NCBI GenBank assembly: GCA_041740355.1
Contig: JBGSMD010000046.1
Location: forward strand, 19,950-83,949
DNA: 64,000 nt
Direction of reading: 5' to 3'
DNA from: Bdellovibrionota bacterium
Lineage (GTDB): Bacteria; Bdellovibrionota_C; UBA2361; CALJRW01
The notes beneath the pieces are model-generated. The model saw only the letters and a list, made by a program, of their open reading frames with translations. It searched no databases and was not told the DNA's origin. Numbering within the stretch: the stretch's first letter is position 1; each line of letters opens with the position of its first letter. Position numbers and translations under genes: made by a program. Shown piece after piece: positions 6,911 to 58,469 of this stretch.

Positions 6911-6995
6911 GAAAGTCCAAAAAGTAATTTATGTAAGGAAACTACTTTTTTGGGCTTTCTATCCCCTGCAAGCGTAGTAAAATCATATAGTTATT
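6911..6995 (+). repeat. Copy B of the AT-hairpin intergenic repeat family
   Basis: The sequence is gaaagtccaaaaagtaatttatgtaaggaaactacttttttgggctttctatcccctgcaagcgtagtaaaatcatatagttatta. Confidence 0.7.
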
Positions 6996-8207: not shown

Positions 8208-8280
8208 AGAAAATCCAAAAAGTAATTTACGTAAGCAAATTACATAATGGGTTTTAGTATATCCCCTGCAGGAAAGTGGG
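8208..8280 (+). repeat. Copy C (degenerate) of the AT-hairpin intergenic repeat family
   Basis: The sequence is gaaaatccaaaaagtaatttacgtaagcaaattacataatgggttttagtatatcccctgcagg. It shares the cccctgcag tail with copy B. Confidence 0.55.
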
Positions 8281-8335: not shown

Positions 8336-9205
8336 ATGCCTTTGCCAGTAACTTTTACACCACAACTTTTAAGACAATTAGAGTTGCAACAATTAAAAGC
8401 GCGCAAATCATTTTTAGGATCTCGGCAGGGTGCTCACTATTCGCCTAAGCGTGGTCATGGAATTGAATTCTCTGACTTTAGGCAGTATCAGCCAGGGGAC
8501 GATCTTCGTCATATAGATTGGAATTTAGTAGCAAGATCTGAACGTTTTTATATTAAACGCTTTAGAGAAGAGCAAGATCTTTTAGTGCATTTAATTCTTG
8601 ATAATTCTGCTTCGATGTTTAGTCCGTCGACTGATAAATGGAATAGGGTTGTGGAGTTAGCCTTAGCGATTGGGTATCTTTCCAGTATGCAACAAGATCG
8701 CTTACAACTTGCTGTGCCGGGACATTTCATTGGTAAAAAATATTCTGGAAAAAACTTAGTATATAAACTCTCTGATGATTTGGCTCAAGTTCAAATCAAC
8801 TCTGCTAAAACTTTTGATGCTGATTTAAAACTTAGTTTTACGACAACAAATTTCCCAGGTGTCGCCTACTACATTTCTGATTTTTTAGATGACCCCGAAA
8901 AAATTAAAGCGAATTTTCAAACATTACTAGCTCGCAATCTTGATTTGCGAGTCATTCAAGTTCTTACTCCAGAGGAGATCACCCCACGCCTTGGAACGAA
9001 GGTCTTAGCAGTTGATAGCGAAACAGGGCAAGAAGTTCCACTCGAAGTAACAGCCAGTAATGCACCTGAATACCAACAAGCTTTTGCTAAGCATCAAAAA
9101 GATTGGCAGGACTTTTCTTATCAACGACAAATCGCTTGGTATAGTTGTGATACTAGCCAAGACTTAGCTGAGATTTGTCGCAAGATATTAGGGGTTGGAA
9201 AATGA
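8336..9205 (+). CDS. DUF58 domain protein (MoxR-partner, VWA-like)
   Basis: It contains DDLRHIDWNLVARSERFYIKRFREEQDLLVHLILDNSASM, the typical DUF58 core. It lies immediately downstream of MoxR. Confidence 0.85.
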   Translation: MPLPVTFTPQLLRQLELQQLKARKSFLGSRQGAHYSPKRGHGIEFSDFRQYQPGDDLRHIDWNLVARSERFYIKRFREEQDLLVHLILDNSASMFSPSTDKWNRVVELALAIGYLSSMQQDRLQLAVPGHFIGKKYSGKNLVYKLSDDLAQVQINSAKTFDADLKLSFTTTNFPGVAYYISDFLDDPEKIKANFQTLLARNLDLRVIQVLTPEEITPRLGTKVLAVDSETGQEVPLEVTASNAPEYQQAFAKHQKDWQDFSYQRQIAWYSCDTSQDLAEICRKILGVGK

Positions 9206-11004
9206 GCCTCGGTTTTAGCGCACCAGCTTTTTTGTTATTAGCCATTCCGGTAATTGGAGGGCTAATCTATGCTTACTTAAATCGTGGGCAAGCTAAGCGG
9301 CAGATAGTTTCTAGCACGATCATATTTAAACAACTTAAGAATCGTCCTAGTGTTCGCCAGCGTATTCAGCTTCCTTGGAGGTTTTTTTATGAACTGCTGG
9401 CGCTGTTAATCTTAGTTTTATCAATTGCCGGATTTTATTGGCAATCGCCAGGCAAATACTGGCAAGTGATTATTGATAATTCACTCAGTCTTTCTGCTAT
9501 CGCCGATGCCAGTAGTTCTAAAAATATTTTAGCTTTAAATATTGCTCAATTAAAAAATGACTATCAGTCTAGGATTCGCAATTTTTCAGGAATTAAAGTC
9601 TGTGTAACGGCGCCAAGTTTTGAGTGCTGGTCAGATGGCTTTCAGACTTGGGATGAGGTGATTTCTAAGATTGAAGATTTAAAAATTCTACCAGCAAACG
9701 ATCTTTTGGAAAGTATTTTAAGTTCACTTACAACTTCACCCGATGTTGAATTGACAGTTTATAGCGATTATTTAAGCAACAGTAAGCAATCAAACAAACT
9801 AAAGCTATCTACGGTACGAAGCGGAGGACTCGGAAATATTGCAATCACTGAAATTTTGCTTAGGCCAAATCAGACAGTTAGTGTTGGCATCCAATCTTTC
9901 GTCAGTACCCCAGTTCAAAAGAAAGTTAAACTTTACTTGCTATCGGAAATTCAAGGGAAATTAGTCTTAACAGAGAGCAAAGAAAATAGTTTTAAACTTA
10001 ATCCAGATCAAAAGATTTTTGTTGATTTTAAAATTGCCAATGATGTCCGCGCGGTTATTGCCGAAATTGACTCTGAAAATCGCAGTCCAACAGTAGACGC
10101 TATTGGTAAAGATAATATTGCTTTTCAAGTGATCAATCCGCAAGTTCAAGCTGAGGTATTATTGGTTAGCGAGCGTTCAATTAGTGAAAGTGGTTTAGCC
10201 GTGGTTTTTGATGATAAGGTAAAATTACTATCGCCGACTGAATATCAGCAAGGAGCGACCAGTTCCAAGAAATATTCACTAATAATTTTTGATAATTATA
10301 TTCCTAAGGAATTCCCAAATTCCAATCATTTGATTATTGCCAGCAATTCAGAGCCTGGAATAATACAAACAGAATTGCAAAGATCTCCCCAGATTACTAC
10401 TTGGGATAAGGAAAGTGCCTTGTTGCGATATTTAACTCCCGATAATTTCCAATTTAAAAATGTTTGGTCAGCTAAACTTCCCAGTTGGTTCCATCCGGTT
10501 ATTTCCAGCAATAATCAAATAATCTTGGCCACTGGATTTTTAGGTCAAGTTAAATCTGTTTACCTGGGATTTCCGATTTTGCCTTTGGAACAAAGTAATA
10601 ATCAAGCAATATCGATTTTAAGCTTAAATACACTTAAGTGGTTAGAAGAAACCAGCGAAGCTCCAATTTCATTTGATCGGGAGACACTGGTTTATACATT
10701 AGTAGATCAAAAATTAGTTTCAGAAATACATTCTAATCAAGCTTCTAGTTTAATCGGAATTTTTTCATCCTCGGATGGAAAGGTAAAATCATATAACGCT
10801 AAGAATTTCTACTCAGAGGAAGAGTCCAATCTGAAAGTTGTTCGGAAGATCTCGATTCCAACATTGCTTATTTCCAAAGAGTCACAATTAGCAAACAGTT
10901 CCAATCCAAATTTGAACCAGTTAATCTGGTTTGTGTTAGTAATGATGTTGGCTGCTTTATACTCACCGCTTTTCATTTTTGATAAAAAAGGAAAAGAAAG
11001 GTGA
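9202..11004 (+). CDS. BatA-N (aerotolerance regulator N-terminal) domain membrane protein
   Basis: The N-terminus MSLGFSAPAFLLLAIPVIGGLIYAYLNRGQAKRQ...LPWRFFYELLALLILVLSIAGF matches the BatA_N pattern. The ATG at 9202 removes the overlap implied by the track's start at 9175. It has a C-terminal TM segment. Confidence 0.75.
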   Translation: MSLGFSAPAFLLLAIPVIGGLIYAYLNRGQAKRQIVSSTIIFKQLKNRPSVRQRIQLPWRFFYELLALLILVLSIAGFYWQSPGKYWQVIIDNSLSLSAIADASSSKNILALNIAQLKNDYQSRIRNFSGIKVCVTAPSFECWSDGFQTWDEVISKIEDLKILPANDLLESILSSLTTSPDVELTVYSDYLSNSKQSNKLKLSTVRSGGLGNIAITEILLRPNQTVSVGIQSFVSTPVQKKVKLYLLSEIQGKLVLTESKENSFKLNPDQKIFVDFKIANDVRAVIAEIDSENRSPTVDAIGKDNIAFQVINPQVQAEVLLVSERSISESGLAVVFDDKVKLLSPTEYQQGATSSKKYSLIIFDNYIPKEFPNSNHLIIASNSEPGIIQTELQRSPQITTWDKESALLRYLTPDNFQFKNVWSAKLPSWFHPVISSNNQIILATGFLGQVKSVYLGFPILPLEQSNNQAISILSLNTLKWLEETSEAPISFDRETLVYTLVDQKLVSEIHSNQASSLIGIFSSSDGKVKSYNAKNFYSEEESNLKVVRKISIPTLLISKESQLANSSNPNLNQLIWFVLVMMLAALYSPLFIFDKKGKER

Positions 11005-11165
11005 GCGAGCAAAATCCTGTTGCAGGCAGGTTATGCCTTAGAAAACACTACAAAACCCTACGCCAATTAGCGGTGAGTATTTGTTTTGTCTTCTGCGGCG
11101 CAACTTGGCTAAAGCCAAGATTACGCGCGCCCTCCGCAAATTTCATCTGCGAAGGGTTTGTTTGG
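10957..11165 (+). ncRNA. Copy 1 of a roughly 205-nt structured element ending in an intrinsic-terminator-like hairpin. Candidate cis-regulatory RNA or sRNA
   Basis: The second copy at 34424-34621 is about 85% identical. Three stems show compensatory changes between the copies. The element ends in ccctccgcaaatttcatctgcgaaggg + ttt. The ORF 11001..11189 overlapping it is not conserved in copy 2. Confidence 0.55.
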
Positions 11166-11185
11166 CGAAGGAGTAGTGTAATAAT

Positions 11186-13684
11186 ATGAGTCTTACCTTT
11201 AATAATTCTTCGTTACTTTTTTTAGTAATCCCATTGCTTGTGATATTTTTCTTGTTCAAGCAAGAAAAAAGCTTGCGAGTTAAAGTGCTGGAAACTTTAG
11301 CGCTAATGAGTTTAATTTTAGCACTTGCTCACCCAGTCTCTCGAACAATGATCAAAGCCGAGGGCGTGATTGTAGCAGTAGATCAATCGGCCAGTATTAC
11401 GCCGCAACTTGCTAGCGATTTTAATAAGCGTTTAGCAGAATTATCTTTACCAAAAGAAACTAAATTTGTTTCCTTTGCGGGAGGCTTGGGTTCCTTAGAA
11501 GCTAGCCTTAAAGAGGCTAATCAAACAAAACTAGATCGCACCAAGGCTAGTAATTTTGAAAATCTGATTAATTACTTTCCTCAGACTCCTCTTGTTTTAC
11601 TATCTGACGGACAAGAGAATTCCGGAAATGCAATTACGGCCTTACAGCTTCGCGGACGAGAAGCACCAATTTATCCAATTGTTCTGGAAGGGGAGGAGAT
11701 TGTCTCTGGATTTCAGATTGAGAAATTAGCGGTTCCGCTAATGTCTGATGCTGGGATTCGCCAAGACTTAACAGTCTTGTTTAAGAATTTCACAGCTGAA
11801 GAAGTTTCCGGAAAGATTCTGATTAAACAAGAGGAACAAGTTTTAAAAGAGGAAGATCGTGAATTGGCGGCGCAGGAGATTCTTAACTATTCGTTTTCAA
11901 CAAAAGAACTAAAACCAGGATTAAATAAATTTACTGTTGAATTTAAAGACGCCTCTGTTCCGACAAATTCGTTAGTATTTTATATTACGGGTAAAGAAAA
12001 GAATCAGGTTCTGATCCTGACCGACAGTGCTGCTGAGTCTAAGCTACTAGAGACCGCTTTATTAAATCAGAAATATAAAGTTGAATTACAAGACTCTTCT
12101 CAGAAGCATGTTGTCGTCGAGGACTTGGCTAAATATCAAATTATTTTCTTCAACAATATTCCCTTTAGATCTTTGCCCGATCCGCTAGTTGACTCATTAA
12201 AGGGCTACCTAAAACAAGGGGGCTCACTAATGATGTTAGGTGGGAATAAAAGCTTTGGACTTGGTGGCTATAAAGACACAGTAGTTGAGGAAATTTTACC
12301 AGTTAATGTTTTAAAGCCTGAAAAAATCCAACAACGAGTAAACGTTGCGGTAGCTCTAGTGCTCGATAAATCAGGTAGCATGAGAGCTAGCCAAAGAATG
12401 GATTACACCAAGTTGGCTTCGCGCTCAGTAATTGAGGCATTAAAAGATGATGATTATTTCGGACTAATTGGTTTTGATAATCAGCCATTTATTGCACTCA
12501 ATATGCAACAAATGAATGCTTCCAATAGAGAGAAAGCTGCTAAGCGTGTAGAGCTATTATTCCCTAATGGCGGAACAAGTCTTTATCCAGCAATGGATGT
12601 TGCTCGGCAAGAATTAGAATTGGCTAAGGCAGGAAGAAAACACATGATTATTCTAACCGATGGTCGCTTGCCGGATGAAGCACAGTTGGGGTCTAGTTAT
12701 CTGAATATGGCCCGAGAACTTAAGGCTACAAATATTTCTGTTTCTACTTTCTTAATTGGGAGTGATGATTCCACCTTATTAAAAGAGATTGCAACTTTTG
12801 GTGGGGGGAAATTTCACCAAACAATGGATGCACAAAGTCTGCCACGTTTATTTTTAGATGATGTGAAGATGAATACTGCTGAAAAAACGCAAAAAGAATT
12901 CTCGGAGTACCCTGTTAAAAAGTTTCCTGGATCCAGTAGTCGCTTAACTAAACTAACTGAGTTTCCAAGTCTTCTGGGATATGTAGAAACTAAAATTAAG
13001 AAGGGTGCAGAATTAGAATTAGTTACAACCGCTGTTAATGATGATCCAATTTTAGCTGGCTGGACCCACGAAGGTGGTCGCGTGGTCGCCTTCACTGGAG
13101 ATCTCTCTGGTCGTTGGTCAAAAAATTGGATTGTTTGGAAATCGATTTATGAGTTCTTAGAACAGGTTTTAAATTATTTGACTCCAAGCAAAGATGGACA
13201 TTTATTTTCAGATTTTGAATTTGATTATTTGATTAAAGGGCAGAGGCTACAACTTAACTTAACTACCTATCAAAGTTCTTTTCAGGTGGGAGATTTTCCA
13301 CTGAATATTACTTGGGCTGATGATTCTACGGAAGAACAAAGTTTTATGACTATAAGTAAAGGGTATTATCAGGCAGACATTGATGCTCCTGTAGCTGGAC
13401 TTGCTAAGGTTAAACTCGGAACCCCTGATGGCCGGGATCACCAATTTATTATTGACATTCCAAATCCTGACGAGGTTGAACGACCGATGGGTGTAAACCA
13501 AGCCTTCCTTAACTCATTAGCAAGTTTAAGTGGTGGTGAAATTAATCCAAAAGAAATTAAAGCCACTTCTGCCGCCCAGTCCAAGCAGACGGAGCAGTCT
13601 TGGCAGGTATCATTTTTACTAATGTCTTTAATTTTATTTCTGCTCGCGATCTGCGCACGAGAAGGTGTTTTCTCAAGGCGCTAG
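11186..13684 (+). CDS. BatA/BatB-like membrane protein with a BatA-N domain and a von Willebrand factor A domain
   Basis: The N-terminal TM/BatA_N region is MSLTFNNSSLLFLVIPLLVIFFLFKQEKSLR. The VWA core is VALVLDKSGSMRA...LFPNGGTSLYPAMDVARQ...HMIILTDG. It has a C-terminal TM segment. Confidence 0.85.
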   Translation: MSLTFNNSSLLFLVIPLLVIFFLFKQEKSLRVKVLETLALMSLILALAHPVSRTMIKAEGVIVAVDQSASITPQLASDFNKRLAELSLPKETKFVSFAGGLGSLEASLKEANQTKLDRTKASNFENLINYFPQTPLVLLSDGQENSGNAITALQLRGREAPIYPIVLEGEEIVSGFQIEKLAVPLMSDAGIRQDLTVLFKNFTAEEVSGKILIKQEEQVLKEEDRELAAQEILNYSFSTKELKPGLNKFTVEFKDASVPTNSLVFYITGKEKNQVLILTDSAAESKLLETALLNQKYKVELQDSSQKHVVVEDLAKYQIIFFNNIPFRSLPDPLVDSLKGYLKQGGSLMMLGGNKSFGLGGYKDTVVEEILPVNVLKPEKIQQRVNVAVALVLDKSGSMRASQRMDYTKLASRSVIEALKDDDYFGLIGFDNQPFIALNMQQMNASNREKAAKRVELLFPNGGTSLYPAMDVARQELELAKAGRKHMIILTDGRLPDEAQLGSSYLNMARELKATNISVSTFLIGSDDSTLLKEIATFGGGKFHQTMDAQSLPRLFLDDVKMNTAEKTQKEFSEYPVKKFPGSSSRLTKLTEFPSLLGYVETKIKKGAELELVTTAVNDDPILAGWTHEGGRVVAFTGDLSGRWSKNWIVWKSIYEFLEQVLNYLTPSKDGHLFSDFEFDYLIKGQRLQLNLTTYQSSFQVGDFPLNITWADDSTEEQSFMTISKGYYQADIDAPVAGLAKVKLGTPDGRDHQFIIDIPNPDEVERPMGVNQAFLNSLASLSGGEINPKEIKATSAAQSKQTEQSWQVSFLLMSLILFLLAICAREGVFSRR

Positions 13685-13701: not shown

Positions 13702-14670
13702 TTAAAGAGACTCTAAGTAGCGTTCAGCTTCAATCGAAGCCATACAACCGCTACCAGCTGCAGTGATCGCCTGACGATAAACTTTATCGCGAACATCACC
13801 ACAAGCAAAAACACCGGGGATTTTTGTTTTAGTAGAATCCGGCGAAGTAATAATATATCCATCTGTATCTAGATCTAGCTGTGTCTCAAATAATTGTGAA
13901 TTTGGGACATGGCCAATTGCCATAAAAATTCCTGAAATTTCCAGTTCGCTTTTTGATTGATCTAAGGTGTTTGTTAGAATTATTTTTTTTAAACCTGCTG
14001 GTTTTTCACCAACTAATTCACTAACAGCACTATTCCAGACAAGCTCAATTTTTGGATTTTTAAATACTCTATCTTGCATGATTTTAGATGCTCGGAGCTG
14101 ATCGCGGCGATGGATTAAGTAAACTTTCTTAGCAAAGCGAGTTAAGAAGAGCGCTTCTTCGCAGGCAGAATCACCACCTCCAACTACCGCAATAGTTTGC
14201 TCACGATAAAAAGCGCCATCGCAAGTTGCGCAGGTAGACACTCCAAAACCAATTAAACTTTTTTCGTTGGGAAGATCTAAATATCTAGGATTAGCACCGG
14301 TAGCAATAATTATGGTATCAGTTGTAAATGTCTCTTCAGCAGTTTTAATTTTATATGGCTTAACTGTTAAATCTACCGCTTCGACCAGAGCAGTTTTAAT
14401 ATTACATCCAAAACGCTTGGCTTGGTTTTCCATTTCTTGCATTAGGTCAGGACCAAGGATTCCATCAACAAATCCCGGATAGTTTTCTACCTCGGTAGTT
14501 GTTGTTAGCTGGCCACCAGGCATGCTGCCTTGAATTAAAAGGGGAGCTAGATTTGCACGAGCAGAATAAATTGCAGCAGTGTATCCTGCAGGTCCCGAAC
14601 CAATGATAATAATGTGGTGATGTTGAGTGCTCATAAGTGTTACGTTAATGATTCTTGATAAATTCCGCAA
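13702..14670 (-). CDS. trxB: Thioredoxin-disulfide reductase
   Basis: FAD motif IIIGSGPAGYTAAIYSAR, redox-active CATCDG, and NADPH motif VVGGGDSA. Confidence 0.95.
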   Translation of the reverse strand: MRNLSRIINVTLMSTQHHHIIIIGSGPAGYTAAIYSARANLAPLLIQGSMPGGQLTTTTEVENYPGFVDGILGPDLMQEMENQAKRFGCNIKTALVEAVDLTVKPYKIKTAEETFTTDTIIIATGANPRYLDLPNEKSLIGFGVSTCATCDGAFYREQTIAVVGGGDSACEEALFLTRFAKKVYLIHRRDQLRASKIMQDRVFKNPKIELVWNSAVSELVGEKPAGLKKIILTNTLDQSKSELEISGIFMAIGHVPNSQLFETQLDLDTDGYIITSPDSTKTKIPGVFACGDVRDKVYRQAITAAGSGCMASIEAERYLESL

Positions 14671-29107: not shown

Positions 29108-29212
29108 AAAGCTACTCTCACTTTGGGCGAAGCGCGAGGTAGCTTGCGAAACTGGTCAGATTCGGAAGGAAGCAGCCATAAGCGAATCCTACTTGTGTTG
29201 CTTCGCCCTCTT
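29108..29212 (+). ncRNA. ffs: Signal recognition particle RNA (4.5S/SRP RNA)
   Basis: The domain IV consensus cuggucagauucGGAAGGAAGCAGCCauaag is present. The closing helix gggcgaagc...gcttcgccc is present. The position immediately upstream of dnaX is the conserved ffs-dnaX-ybaB-recR arrangement. The ends are approximate. Confidence 0.75.
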
Positions 29213-29228
29213 TCGCCAAGGCTTCAGC

Positions 29229-32407: not shown

Positions 32408-32423
32408 TTCAGTCCACAACTAT

Positions 32424-32496
32424 TCCCCGGTAGCTCAGTTGGTAGAGCAGTTGACTGTTAATCAATTGGTCGTAGGTTCGAGTCCTTCCCGGGGAG
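32424..32496 (+). tRNA. tRNA-Asn (anticodon GTT)
   Basis: Acceptor stem TCCCCGG/CCGGGGA, discriminator G. D-arm GCTCAGTTGGTAGAGC. Anticodon stem-loop GTTGA-CTGTTAA-TCAAT. T-loop GGTTCGAGTCC. No encoded CCA. Confidence 0.85.
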
Positions 32497-32652
32497 TTTC
32501 CTTCTTTTCTAGTCAGAGACCTAATAATTTCACTATTATTTAAGATAAATTATAGGAAGATTTTATGATAATTTTCTTATAGCTTTTAAATACTGAATCT
32601 GTTGAATTCAAACCATTGCGTGGCAGAAAGAAGCCTGGCTCTAATTTAAAAA

Positions 32653-32778
32653 TTAATACCAAGAATTGGTAGTGTTAGTAAGGTTTAGTATCGCAGCATT
32701 TTTATAGAGTGCCCACGCTCCAAGAATTGTTCCAAATGGCAAGGAAAATATTATAATAATATTACAAATTTTTGCCAT
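32653..32778 (-). CDS. Candidate 41-aa small membrane protein (MAKICNIIIIFSLPFGTILGAWALYKNAAILNLTNTTNSWY)
   Basis: A strong SD (GGGAGG) lies 6 nt upstream of the ATG. There is one predicted TM helix. It is below the ORF-track size cut-off. Coordinates are good to within 1 nt. Confidence 0.4.
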   Translation of the reverse strand: MAKICNIIIIFSLPFGTILGAWALYKNAAILNLTNTTNSWY

Positions 32779-32914
32779 CTTGTGCCTCCCAACTTTCAAC
32801 TAGAGTTGCCCGGCACGAATTTCAAAATTTCTTATTTTACAAAACAGTATTATTCCATTTCCAAAGGTTTGGTTGAGCTTATAGAAGCGTGGCACAAGAG
32901 GAATAAGAAAATAA

Positions 32915-34048
32915 TTAAGTAGGTATGGCCGATGTCTTTGGGGTGAATGGCAGATCCCAAGTATAGGCCATTATAGCAAGAGCTTGATCCACTTTTCGAC
33001 TTGAGTAATCAGTGAGTATTTGACTTGCTGAGTGGCTTGCTCCGTTCAGGAGTGCGGTTAACTCTTTTGTACGTGCTGGAAATAGATCAAGTAGAGCAAC
33101 AATTTCCGAGATGTCTTTGGCGAGTTCCGGAAGTTGAGTTTTGCCATCGACACTAGCCATTGTCTTAAATTTTTCAGCTACGGAAAAAAGTCCAAAGTGT
33201 TGGACGTCTTTGCGGCTAACAAAATCTTTTGAAATTCCTAGTTCGTCCGTCATACTTACTAGCGCAGCATAAGTATTATGATGCTTGGTGTGATAAAATC
33301 TCTGACGATAATCATTCATCCGATTTCCGATGACGCCTAGGAGCTCTTCTTTGTTAAATGTTTGAGTTTCAAAGATCTTAGCGAGTTGTGTTGCTCCTTT
33401 GATTCCTTCTGTAAAAGTCTCCGAGAAAGCCTGAATATTAATGGCATTATCCATGCTGGATTTAACTGCGTAAAGTACGGAGCGCTGTAGTCCTGGATCT
33501 TTTAAGACATCTTTTTCTATCCCAAGTTCTTTGGAGACTTCTAACACATATCCAACGACATTCCTGGCACTCTCAGGATTCATTCTTTGAAGTGAATCAG
33601 TAAGACTCCCAGCAACAATTACAACAAGATCTTTTTTAGAATATTTTGTTAAACCAAATTGATTAGCCATCTGTAAAGCAGCTTCTTTCGCCCCAGCTTG
33701 AAGTTTTGGGTCGGTGTAATCTTGGTTACTATTGATAGATCCACGATTTTCAAAATAAGTATCTTTCGCTGCATTAATTGCAGCTCTAAATTTTAGTAAT
33801 GCTGCTTCTTGCACGCGCTTATCTTTTTGCAGATAGGCAGGAACTTCTCCAGGAATGTCGATGTCTTGAGCAATAGCTTTAGATAAGATAATTGGTTCGG
33901 AATCTTTTCCTAAAAATGCGGCACGAGGTGAGCCGACTTTCGGTAATTTAAATTCTAGTGTTGAAAGATCGGTTTTGGCCTGTGAAGTTTTTGGTTCTAA
34001 TATTGCAGATGACATACAGCTAGTTAAAGATACAACTATGACCTTCAT
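32915..34048 (-). CDS. Lipoprotein of unknown function
   Basis: MKVIVVSLTSCMSSA is a lipobox. The 377-aa protein has locally higher GC than its surroundings. Confidence 0.6.
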   Translation of the reverse strand: MKVIVVSLTSCMSSAILEPKTSQAKTDLSTLEFKLPKVGSPRAAFLGKDSEPIILSKAIAQDIDIPGEVPAYLQKDKRVQEAALLKFRAAINAAKDTYFENRGSINSNQDYTDPKLQAGAKEAALQMANQFGLTKYSKKDLVVIVAGSLTDSLQRMNPESARNVVGYVLEVSKELGIEKDVLKDPGLQRSVLYAVKSSMDNAINIQAFSETFTEGIKGATQLAKIFETQTFNKEELLGVIGNRMNDYRQRFYHTKHHNTYAALVSMTDELGISKDFVSRKDVQHFGLFSVAEKFKTMASVDGKTQLPELAKDISEIVALLDLFPARTKELTALLNGASHSASQILTDYSSRKVDQALAIMAYTWDLPFTPKTSAIPT

Positions 34049-34423
34049 CTGACGATTTTTAGATTATGACTCTAAGATTTTAAGGGTTTATGGTATTCCA
34101 ACCCTATTTTCTGGAGAGAAACATTAAGACATGCTTAAAACCCTTGATTGTTCATAAGGATAGCAATTTTGCAAAAATAACATTTAATAGATTGAGTAAG
34201 TTAAAATTTGCAAAATTGCTGGCCTCGTAAAAAAAGAGGTTTTAAGCAGGTCTCACATTAAATGATGCAAGTCATGGATACTCCAATTGTCTCCCAGTTA
34301 GTACCTAGTCGCATTTAGTTTAATTGGAGTTAGATAACTTAAATCAATTAAATTCCAGATAATACAGGGTTTAAATCTAAGATCTCTAGATAGCAACTCT
34401 AAGTAAAAACCTGAATTTTATAC

Positions 34424-34621
34424 TCACCGTTTTTCATTTTTGATAAAAAATGAAAAGAAAGGTGAGCGAGCAAAATCATGTCGCAGACAGGTTTTGCCGT
34501 AGAAAACACCGCTAAACCCTACGCAAATCAGCGGTGAGTATTGGTTTCGTCTTCTACGGCGTAACTTAGCTAACGCTAAGATTACGCTCGCCCTCCACAA
34601 ATTTCATTTGCGGAGGGTTTA
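34424..34621 (+). ncRNA. Copy 2 of the roughly 205-nt structured, terminator-ending element
   Basis: It is about 85% identical to 10957-11165, including a relic of the upstream gene's last codons (LYSPFFIFDKK*). It ends in ccctccacaaatttcatttgcggaggg + ttt, which abuts the stop of the convergent VIT gene. Confidence 0.55.
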
Positions 34622-35314
34622 TAATGTGGTTCCAATCAATCTTCCCACTCCAGCAGTGACCCCCATAGCAAGAGCTCCCCAAAACATAACTCGAAATGCC
34701 CCTCTTATCAGAGATGCCCCGCCAGCATATGAGGCTAACAAGCCTAGAATCAGCAGAGTAAAGAGAGTTGAGATCGTTGTAACAAAACTTACTGAATGAG
34801 CTGAAGCAGTTAGTGCTGCTAGAATTGGCACTACCCCTCCAATAGCAAAAGCAACCGCTGAAGCAAATGCGGCTTGAATTGGGCGGGCTCTGAGCTCCTC
34901 AGTTATACCCAGTTCGTCTCTTGTATGCGCAACTAGTGCGTCTACCGCTGTTAACTGTTGCGCAACTTGCAAGGCAAGAGCGCTATCAAGTCCGCGTTTT
35001 ACATAAATTTCAGTTAGCTCTTCAAGTTCCTTCTGAGGGTCTTCTGCTAATTCTTGTTTTTCTCTATTTAAATCTGCATTTTCCGTGTCTGCCTGGGATT
35101 GTACAGAAATATATTCTCCAGCCGCCATCGATAATGCCCCAGCCACGAGTCCTGCGATTCCGGTCAGAAGAATGTCACTTTGTAAGGCGCCAGCCGCGGC
35201 AACACCTACAACAAGACTAGAGATAGAGACTACACCATCATTAGCACCTAAAACAGACGCTCTAAGCCATCCAATTCTATGTGCCCGGTGGTATTCAATG
35301 TGTTGTGAACGCAT
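34619..35314 (-). CDS. VIT1/CCC1-family (MbfA-like) iron/manganese transporter
   Basis: WLRASVLGANDGVVSISSLVVGVAAAG...GALSMAAGEYISVQSQ...ELTEIYVKRGL carries the family signatures. It is GC-richer than the surrounding genes. Confidence 0.85.
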   Translation of the reverse strand: MRSQHIEYHRAHRIGWLRASVLGANDGVVSISSLVVGVAAAGALQSDILLTGIAGLVAGALSMAAGEYISVQSQADTENADLNREKQELAEDPQKELEELTEIYVKRGLDSALALQVAQQLTAVDALVAHTRDELGITEELRARPIQAAFASAVAFAIGGVVPILAALTASAHSVSFVTTISTLFTLLILGLLASYAGGASLIRGAFRVMFWGALAMGVTAGVGRLIGTTL

Positions 35315-35674
35315 AAATAATTATTCTTTGTTAACAAAGCTGGCAGAAAGCAAACTTCAGAGCGGGGGGCTTGTAGAGCATTACAGTCATATTTCCATTT
35401 TGACATTCCAGCCAGTCAACTTACTTCCAGCAACTGATTAATTCACAAATATTTTAGTTTATAATCAGCCGCCTAAGGAAATCTTATGATAATTTTAAAT
35501 TTAGTAACCTGCCTCTAGGTTTAATTATTTTAGGATATCCTAACCAGAAAACTTTGTAGATTGAGATTTAGCCTTGAATCGATTTAAGAGTAGCCGGCCT
35601 CTCTCCACCATTAACTTCTAAGTCCTTAAGTCAATGGAGGTAAGAGACAGACTACTTCCTTATTGAAAACTGGA

Positions 35675-36634: not shown

Positions 36635-37090
36635 TTATTCCTTTATGGACTGAAATCCTAATTTTCGTTTTTTAGTTTCTATCGGTTTTTCAAGCTGAGA
36701 AATCACAAATCTGATCTCCTGTAATTCCTCGTAATGTTCAGAGAATCCTTTGGAAACTCTTTGTTCAAGAACTTGAAGTCTTCGCTTCAAATCGGTGTGT
36801 TCCTGGGTAACTTCCTTTAATTTTATAAAAACTCGTACTAGCATAATACTAGCCTGAATTGCTACTTTACTATTTAGTACGTTTGCAGCCATAACAGCTC
36901 CATACTCAGTAAAGACTCTTGGGGGTTTACGTCTTCCCCCATGTACATAACTTGAAGTCGCAATTTGCGACTTCAAGTTTGTAACTTCTTGAATAGCCAG
37001 AGAAAACATAAAGTCAGAGGGGAATCTTTCCAAGTTTCTAATAACCTGTTCGTTAAGGCGTTTCGTGATGACACCATAAAGATCAGCCAA
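36635..37090 (-). CDS. ORF6N-domain protein (mobile-element-associated DNA-binding family), lacking a canonical start codon
   Basis: LYGVITKRLNEQVIRNLERFPSDFMFSLA...HGGRRKPPRVFTEYGAVMAANVLNS matches ORF6N. The conserved N-terminal residues (...RIIIVNGQRVILDSDLADLYGV) are encoded in-frame upstream (to about 37150), with no ATG/GTG/TTG before an in-frame stop. It is either a non-canonical start or a pseudogene. Confidence 0.6.
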   Translation of the reverse strand: MADLYGVITKRLNEQVIRNLERFPSDFMFSLAIQEVTNLKSQIATSSYVHGGRRKPPRVFTEYGAVMAANVLNSKVAIQASIMLVRVFIKLKEVTQEHTDLKRRLQVLEQRVSKGFSEHYEELQEIRFVISQLEKPIETKKRKLGFQSIKE

Positions 37091-52241: not shown

Positions 52242-52300
52242 GAAAGCCCCAAAAAGTAGTTTCCTTTCGTAAATTACTTTTTGAACTTTCTATATATGAA
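52242..52300 (+). repeat. Copy E of the AT-hairpin intergenic repeat family
   Basis: gaaagccccaaaaagtagtttcctttcgtaaattactttttgaactttcta. Confidence 0.6.
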
Positions 52301-57889: not shown

Positions 57890-58021
57890 TTGATACCAGC
57901 AAAGATTTGTCAAAATTGTGGTCGATCATTTGATTTCCGCTCCAAGTGGAAGAATTGCTGGGAAGAGGTAAGATATTGTTCGGAAAAGTGTCGACAAGTA
58001 TATAGTAATGACAAAAAATAA
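57890..58021 (+). CDS. DUF2256-like zinc-ribbon small protein (TTG start)
   Basis: IPAKICQNCGRSFDFRSKWKNCWEEVRYCSEKCRQ matches the C-x2-C...YCS-x2-CR zinc ribbon of DUF2256. Only the last 43 codons of track ORF 57518..58021 look coding. Confidence 0.45.
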   Translation: MIPAKICQNCGRSFDFRSKWKNCWEEVRYCSEKCRQVYSNDKK

Positions 58022-58469
58022 TTTACTGCCTGCCTAGCCGAAGCTTCAGCGAAGGCTGGTTAGTAAATTAAACAGAGTCATTACGGCTAATGCAAATCTT
58101 GAATTCTTGTCGCGCCAAAGCAAAAGCTACGGCGGATATCCAAGTTTACATAGCTAAATGCAACATAAATAGTGAGTCCAAGCGAAATCCTTAGCTTTTT
58201 AAAGTAATTTATTATTTGGACTCACTATAAAGAGTCCAGAGTCAATTTTTGGAAGCAAGAGATATTAATAAGTTGTAACTCTAATACTTCAATTTGTCCC
58301 TCGCAAATTGCAAGAAAGGCTCTACCCGAGGCTTGAAAAGAGCACATGGAATTTTTGGGACAAGCTGCCCGTTTGCTTGTACACGAAGGAGATATCGTAA
58401 TACTTCAAGGTAATAAAATTGTGAATCCTAGCGAGTTTAAGGCACCAATACGATTAAAGTTAAAATAGT

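Follow-up and report, generated by a model that had tools for sequence, protein, structure and literature searches.

A probable small mobile element at the 3' end of a BatA-N domain gene in a Bdellovibrionota-like lineage

A stretch of 64,000 nucleotides from a Bdellovibrionota bacterium, referred to here as the window, contains a string of codons in DNA that lies between genes. At 34418–34453 the forward strand reads tta tac tca ccg ttt ttc att ttt gat aaa aaa tga, or LYSPFFIFDKK*. In a second copy of this DNA the same frame forms the end of the 9202–11004 open reading frame, a BatA-N domain gene whose product ends ...LYSPLFIFDKKGKER*. The original prediction had recognised this match to the C-terminus of the 9202–11004 protein and the match was borne out, with the start of the string corrected to 34418 from 34424. 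It is also the case, as had been stated, that no gene leads into the string: the nearest upstream gene (32915–34048) is on the opposite strand and no open reading frame enters. How, then, did the last codons of a gene come to be in this location? Is the string a relic of the BatA-N gene, left when the end of that gene was duplicated? Or, is it part of a mobile unit that has supplied the BatA-N gene with its 3' end? Here we investigate the copies of this repeat, their borders and the sites in which they are found.

Copies and borders of the F1 repeat

The string opens a repeated unit of 204 nt, F1, which is present in the window as two direct copies with 89% identity (about 10956–11160 and 34417–34621). 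A 21-mer common to both copies occurs exactly twice in the window, against 0.00 occurrences expected by chance. The likeness of the two protein strings comes from a repeat in the DNA and is far beyond chance. Further copies were sought by a 19-mer scan of one genome per species, and two were found, both in one MAG of a different species, JANNBC01. The known copies are as follows.

10957..11160, + strand: F1 copy 1, inserted in the 3' end of the BatA-N gene; the most diverged copy
34418..34621, + strand: F1 copy 2, intergenic, between a divergent open reading frame (32915–34048) and the convergent VIT gene
JANNBC01 loci L002, 7641–7841, and L006, 2471–2673: the two F1 copies of the MAG, both intergenic, at unrelated loci

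One of the JANNBC01 copies separates the starts of two divergent genes and precedes an SNF2-type helicase, and the other is between the gene of an acidic 534-aa protein and a pyruvate kinase gene. The four copies are thus in four unrelated contexts in two species. All four begin and end sharply at the same sequences, TTATACTCACCG... and ...GCGGAGGGTTTA, and beyond these the similarity ceases. The common 5' border is TTATACTC, with no BatA-N coding similarity upstream of it, and the end sequences of the unit are TTATACTCACCGC and GCGGAGGGTTTA. Within its ~200 nt there is no open reading frame conserved across the four copies in any of the six frames. A coding role for a 58-aa minus-strand open reading frame in copy 2 was rejected, as the frame is closed in the other copies.

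Pairwise identity between the copies is 88–92%. Their differences are star-like, and copies of one genome are not closer to each other than to the rest. Syntenic coding DNA of the window genome and the JANNBC01 MAG is 72–84% identical, below the ~90% of F1. From this ~90% identity everywhere and the star-like differences at non-orthologous sites we infer that the copies would go back to repeated insertion from one conserved master sequence, which both species would have in active form or would exchange; selection on the sequence itself would be the alternative. Copy 1 has 13 private changes, the most of all copies, and five of these break stems.

There may be a third copy in the window genome. 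A Logan contig of this genome extends 104 nt into copy 2 before it stops. The 30-mer at its end is absent from copy 1 and identical in the MAG copy of L006, and this break hints at one more copy of that sequence. An nhmmer profile built from the four copies found no diverged copies in the window or in any of the loci, there were no more copies in the metagenome scan (19-mer) or the viral scan (17-mer), and distant-mode searches of plasmids and phages gave no F1 match. Three metagenome matches and three of the five genome matches of the scan had similarity in the seed only and were set aside as chance.

The codon-like string has a simple origin within this unit. Both intergenic JANNBC01 copies likewise read LYSPLFIFDKK*. 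The string coincides with the following structure, which is almost invariant in the four copies, with three single-base differences in 44 nt.

34423..34466, + strand: hairpin H1 of F1 copy 2, CTCACC..TTTTCATTTTT GATA AAAAATGAAAA..GGTGAG

LYSPFFIFDKK* is the 5' arm and loop of H1, the first hairpin of F1, read as codons.

Copy 1 in the BatA-N gene and copy 2 beside the VIT gene

The BatA-N gene belongs to a moxR-DUF58-batA-VWA operon, which together with its flanks is otherwise collinear with the JANNBC01 MAG. Its 3' end and the start of the next gene are arranged in the window as follows.

9202..11004, + strand: BatA-N domain gene; the codons from 10960 (YSPLFIFDKKGKER; stop 11002–11004) are F1 sequence
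11157..11189, + strand: displaced original BatA-N end, now non-coding, TTT GTT TGG CGA AGG AGT AGT GTA ATA ATA TGA, or FVWRRSSVII*
11186..13684, + strand: VWA/GATase1-like gene, the next gene of the operon

Only seven BatA-N homologs were found among 5.8 billion proteins. Two orthologs (67–70% identity) end ...FIWRKGKAKA* and ...FIWRRSKINQ*, and a more distant homolog ends ...FIWRKE; in these proteins the FIWR(K/R) motif follows the C-terminal hydrophobic segment. The corresponding codons are present in the window, downstream of the element: 11157–11189 aligns with TTT ATT TGG CGA AGG AGT AAG ATT AAC CAA TGA of L009, from a third genome, and with TTT ATT TGG CGA AAG GGG ... TGA of L007, from the JANNBC01 MAG. 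The BatA-N/VWA junction is empty in both L007 and L009, and in both the BatA-N stop overlaps the VWA start as ATGA. In the window it is the old stop that has this ATGA overlap, and there are now 181 nt between the BatA-N stop and the start of the VWA gene.

Excision of 10960–11156 (197 nt) gives an open reading frame of ortholog length, in which ...AAL|FVWRR matches ...ASL|FIWRR. This reconstruction is the best, as it keeps both ortholog length and frame, and it contains no target duplication. Two others, one or two codons shorter, are also in frame. Duplications of TA or TTA fit three of the four F1 copies by eye, but at copy 1 they were rejected as the best model because they break the frame of the retained FVWRR tail.

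Because the sites are empty in the relatives and the displaced codons have been kept downstream, F1 can be placed as an insertion about 10 codons before the BatA-N stop that replaced the tail. The comparison shows that in the predicted protein the basic original tail has been replaced by 15 F1-derived residues and an F1 stop codon, and that in the aligned DNA the original tail and its ATGA overlap have been shifted 197 nt downstream. The stop codon now in use is not the first that F1 offers. At 10990 (column 35) copy 1 has a G where the other three copies have a T, and this change removed F1's own in-frame TGA. The BatA-N open reading frame therefore extends four codons further, to the TGA within GGTGAG in the 3' arm of H1.

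The surroundings of copy 2 are different.

32423..32497, + strand: tRNA-Asn; synteny with the related MAG ends here
34619..35314, − strand: VIT family gene, convergent on copy 2

Synteny with the JANNBC01 MAG runs from 21335 to the tRNA-Asn at 32528 and is then broken, so that ORF377, copy 2 and the VIT gene are all in variable DNA. The segment that differs from the related MAG is 32530–35598. The variable region downstream of the tRNA-Asn may be an integration hotspot or island, and an ORF6N/anti-repressor-like gene is found after it, at 36635–37090. Within the syntenic part, a bacterial small SRP RNA at 29122–29214 (54.6 bits) is conserved in the corresponding region of the MAG. ORF377, beside copy 2, appears not to be a hidden transposase, having no matches in Pfam, NCBIfam or PHROG.

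The stop codon of the VIT gene is the reverse complement of 34619–34621 (TTA), the last conserved bases of the F1 unit. The length of the VIT protein and its C-terminus (..IGTTL) are the same as in its homologs. There is therefore no fusion at copy 2; this comparison shows that the element landed 1 nt beyond the VIT stop, in strain-specific DNA downstream of the tRNA-Asn. An empty site corresponding to copy 2 was not found, synteny with the MAG being broken at the tRNA-Asn and VIT homologs being too widespread for an ortholog to be singled out.

The suggestion that a mobile unit supplies gene 3' ends holds for copy 1 in so far as comparison of the orthologous loci finds the BatA-N/VWA junction filled in the window and empty in two relatives, with the original codons displaced. 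It does not hold as a general targeting of 3' ends: a gene end is touched by only two of the four copies, the MAG copies are upstream of genes, and the VIT gene is unaltered. Nor do other copies prove to be fused to the C-terminal codons of genes, since both JANNBC01 copies are intergenic and copy 2 fuses nothing.

The fold of F1 and alternative explanations

The fold common to the four copies has seven helices: H1 comes first, three further hairpins are enclosed by the helix GCGAGC/GCTCGC, and the hairpin H5 is at the end. In this fold 96.8% of the cells are paired. H1 begins 3 nt from the left end of F1 and H5 ends 4 nt from the right end.

34591..34617, + strand: terminal GC-rich hairpin H5 of copy 2, CCCTCC..GGAGGG, then TTTA

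Copy 2 folds with −80.5 kcal/mol (z = −9.0 and −8.9 for the two strands, against shuffles) and copy 1 folds least well (z = −3.5). The four-copy profile matches its own reverse strand with E = 1e-11 to 1e-13, so F1 is a long imperfect palindrome. Its terminal inverted repeats match at 9 of 12 positions (TATACTCACCGC and TAAACCCTCCGC), and the 5' end has its best inverted match within F1 itself. The 5'-terminal 12-mer TATACTCACCGC has an inverted internal copy, GCGGTGAGTATT, matching at 11 of 12 positions (11070–11081 and 34531–34542, − strand). The two could pair over 11 bp at long range, in competition with H1. In one MAG copy a G-to-A change in column 118 disrupts this pairing.

Is F1, then, mainly the gene of a functional small RNA that extends from TATACT at the 5' border to the terminal hairpin, with the overlap with BatA-N as a side effect? 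Selection would in that case keep the ~90% identity, while positions would shift by recombination or transfer, so this explanation is compatible with mobility. It would account for an element more conserved than coding DNA and for a multi-hairpin fold common to all copies, and MITE-derived small RNAs are known in Coxiella (PMC5896051). Changes in F1 are about half as frequent in paired as in unpaired columns (Fisher p = 0.034) and there are two compensatory pairs, yet the covariation is no better than in shuffles, 71 of 500 of which reach the observed value. On the + strand there are nine G-U cells against four A-C cells, but this excess lacks significance and neither strand folds better than the other. 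Nothing is conserved upstream of TATACT, hence there is no -35 element, and a consensus scan detected neither a promoter in the two window copies or immediately before them nor any terminator-like site in their surroundings. Rfam 15 at gathering thresholds identified only tRNA and SRP RNA in the whole window; at E values up to 10, F1 and a second repeat family, F2 (described below), gave only noise from miRNA models. Insertion into a coding region with displacement of a conserved tail is, in addition, the behaviour of a selfish element. We consider it unlikely that F1 is primarily a small-RNA gene. A riboswitch or other cis-regulator was also rejected, as the genes downstream of the copies are unrelated (VWA, SNF2 helicase, pyruvate kinase, and none).

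The terminator scan also bears on the claim that the end of copy 2 forms a bidirectional terminator abutting the VIT stop. H5 of copy 2 is followed only by TTTA on the + strand and by GCGAGC, without a T run, on the − strand, and the claim is not supported. Copy 1 has TTTGTTTG at H5, where the loop is 9 nt.

A second alternative concerns the mechanism of movement. IS200/IS605 elements are defined by the absence of target duplication, a fixed short 5' flank, subterminal hairpins and the lack of long terminal inverted repeats. F1 might be a derivative of this type (PATE), which would move as single-stranded DNA, insert 3' of TTAT without duplication and be recognised through the subterminal hairpins H1 and H5. 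TTAT stands before each of the four copies, the best site reconstructions contain no duplication, and F1 has hairpins near both ends and no long terminal inverted repeats. The resemblance to PATEs is one of anatomy only. No TnpA or TnpB gene and no matching IS end were found in the window and there was no match to HEARO or to the IS605-type and omega-RNA-type families of Rfam. Four sites are also too few to define a target, and an alternative reading in which the element is flanked by TA (TA|TACTC...GGGTT|TA) fits three of the four copies and would point instead to an IS630/mariner-type partner. An IS200/IS605 origin therefore seems doubtful to us.

More speculative, and in our opinion quite improbable, is that F1 and the similarly behaving F2 are not junk MITEs but mobile cassettes for a structured RNA of ~200 nt, held by selection near 90% identity across species. 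One possibility is that such a cassette could carry a stand-alone guide or bridge-type RNA that is used in trans by a recombinase encoded elsewhere. If true, this would also account for a fixed short motif at the insertion site and for the missing duplication.

The explanation from which the locus was first viewed fares worst: that the BatA-N 3' end and a downstream RNA element were duplicated beyond the tRNA-Asn, with copy 2 keeping dead codons, would explain why both window copies have the codon-like string, but it is scarcely credible when the string occurs in two intergenic copies of another species, homology ends at the same border in all four copies, orthologous BatA-N genes end FIWRK.. 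or FIWRR.. without the string at loci without any element, and the original gene end persists downstream of copy 1. Both the segmental duplication and the relic of BatA-N codons that had been proposed for copy 2 are refuted by these observations.

F1 is most probably a non-coding, quasi-palindromic, MITE-like, non-autonomous mobile element of ~200 nt, whose first hairpin is read as LYSPFFIFDKK*. Such an element would not move alone and would need an enzyme encoded elsewhere; there was no transposase among the 40 window open reading frames scanned in Pfam, and no cognate IS is known. F1 would insert without clear target duplication and would favour an AT-rich site like TTA|TTTA, and sites of this kind are common around stop codons. 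Several features fit a mobile element less well. The known copies number only four, the terminal inverted repeats are weak, and the in-frame reconstruction of copy 1 leaves no target-site duplication. The lower frequency of changes in paired columns and the two compensatory pairs could also reflect selection on a functional RNA and not recency.

Known small elements and other repeats of the lineage

Correia/NEMIS elements, whose host is Neisseria, are marked by terminal inverted repeats of 26 bp, an IHF site and duplication of TA. RUP of Streptococcus pneumoniae shares its ends with IS630-Spn1. The original prediction had drawn an analogy with both, and a kinship of F1 with either is not borne out. 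Unlike those of Correia elements, the terminal repeats of F1 are imperfect and at most 12 nt, the 26-bp Correia repeats being absent, and the Oligoflexia/Bdellovibrionota-like host lineage is unrelated. What Correia/NEMIS and RUP have in common with F1 is that they are non-autonomous and small (100–155 bp) and insert beside or into genes; they can also alter transcript ends (see also PMC2229807).

Closer in behaviour are QMITE1 and QMITE2 of Coxiella burnetii. Like F1, these are small, non-coding and hairpin-forming and overlap gene 3' ends. Both overlap gene C-termini by up to 50 bp, QMITE2 supplies the C-terminal residues and stop codon of EnhC in the Dugway strain, and some QMITE copies yield small RNAs (PMC5896051). 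QMITEs occur in tens of copies, with direct repeats and with terminal inverted repeats that can be recognised, whereas F1 has four known copies, weak repeats and no evident duplication. No sequence relationship between them is expected. In-frame fusion with genes has also been described for the Rickettsia RPE, the enterobacterial ERIC/RU-1 and the 107-bp form of the Correia element (PMC2229807). F1 is like RPE and ERIC/RU-1 in being largely palindromic, small, well conserved between species and tolerated as a gene fusion (PMC2229807). RPE insertions are internal and are read through in frame, however, whereas F1 truncates the gene and replaces its tail, and no sequence similarity between them is known.

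The host lineage is very sparsely sampled. MnmG of the window genome has 88% protein identity with that of the JANNBC01 MAG, and only two other genomes have an MnmG of more than 70% identity. The nearest named relatives by this protein are Oligoflexia and Bdellovibrionota MAGs, at 62–64%. Two small palindromic repeat families other than F1 are found in the same genomes and have presence/absence differences too.

The first of these, F2, is a structured repeat of ~200 nt that is present at 58001–58230 of the window and at 14309–14505 of L007, with 90% identity and at non-syntenic sites. Its borders are sharp (TATAGTAATGAC...GGACTCACTATAA) and its ends form an inverted repeat of 7 nt without mismatch, TTATAGT. 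In the MAG, F2 has a fold z of −9.6 and no Rfam match and separates the VWA gene from the Pyr_redox gene; in the window there is no more than a 17-nt spacer between these two genes. The window copy carries an extra 32-nt GC-rich hairpin, TGCCTGCCTAGCCGAAGCTTCAGCGAAGGCTG (58027–58058), in the loop of the first hairpin, which is absent from the MAG copy. The Logan contig L008 stops exactly 30 nt into F2, which is where a k=31 assembly should break at a repeat.

The second consists of palindromic repeats of ~56 nt (GAAAGTCCAAAAAGTAATTTA...TAAATTACTTTTTGGGGCTTTC), which are found at 1877–1932, 6911–6966, 8209–8264 and 52243–52298. All follow the stop codon of a gene by no more than ~125 nt, and three by no more than 30 nt, like REP or terminator elements. 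The repeat at 8209 belongs to 128 nt of inserted DNA that separate moxR from the DUF58 gene; in both relatives the spacer there is only 5 nt.

These observations correct an annotation trap, in that the last 15 residues of the BatA-N protein are derived from the element and are not ancestral. For the same reason, the apparent gene fragment downstream of the tRNA-Asn is no pseudogene. The filled and empty sites document a small mobile element replacing the tail that follows the C-terminal hydrophobic segment of a protein, and the same insertion of copy 1 has, within an operon, separated two translationally coupled genes that had an ATGA overlap. F1 is a new family, while the phenomenon itself is already well described: small non-autonomous elements that give genes their tails or stop codons have been documented in several bacteria, and F1 works like those. 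In this barely sampled Oligoflexia/Bdellovibrionota-like lineage the small palindromic repeats belong to at least three families, and short-read assemblies break at two of these.
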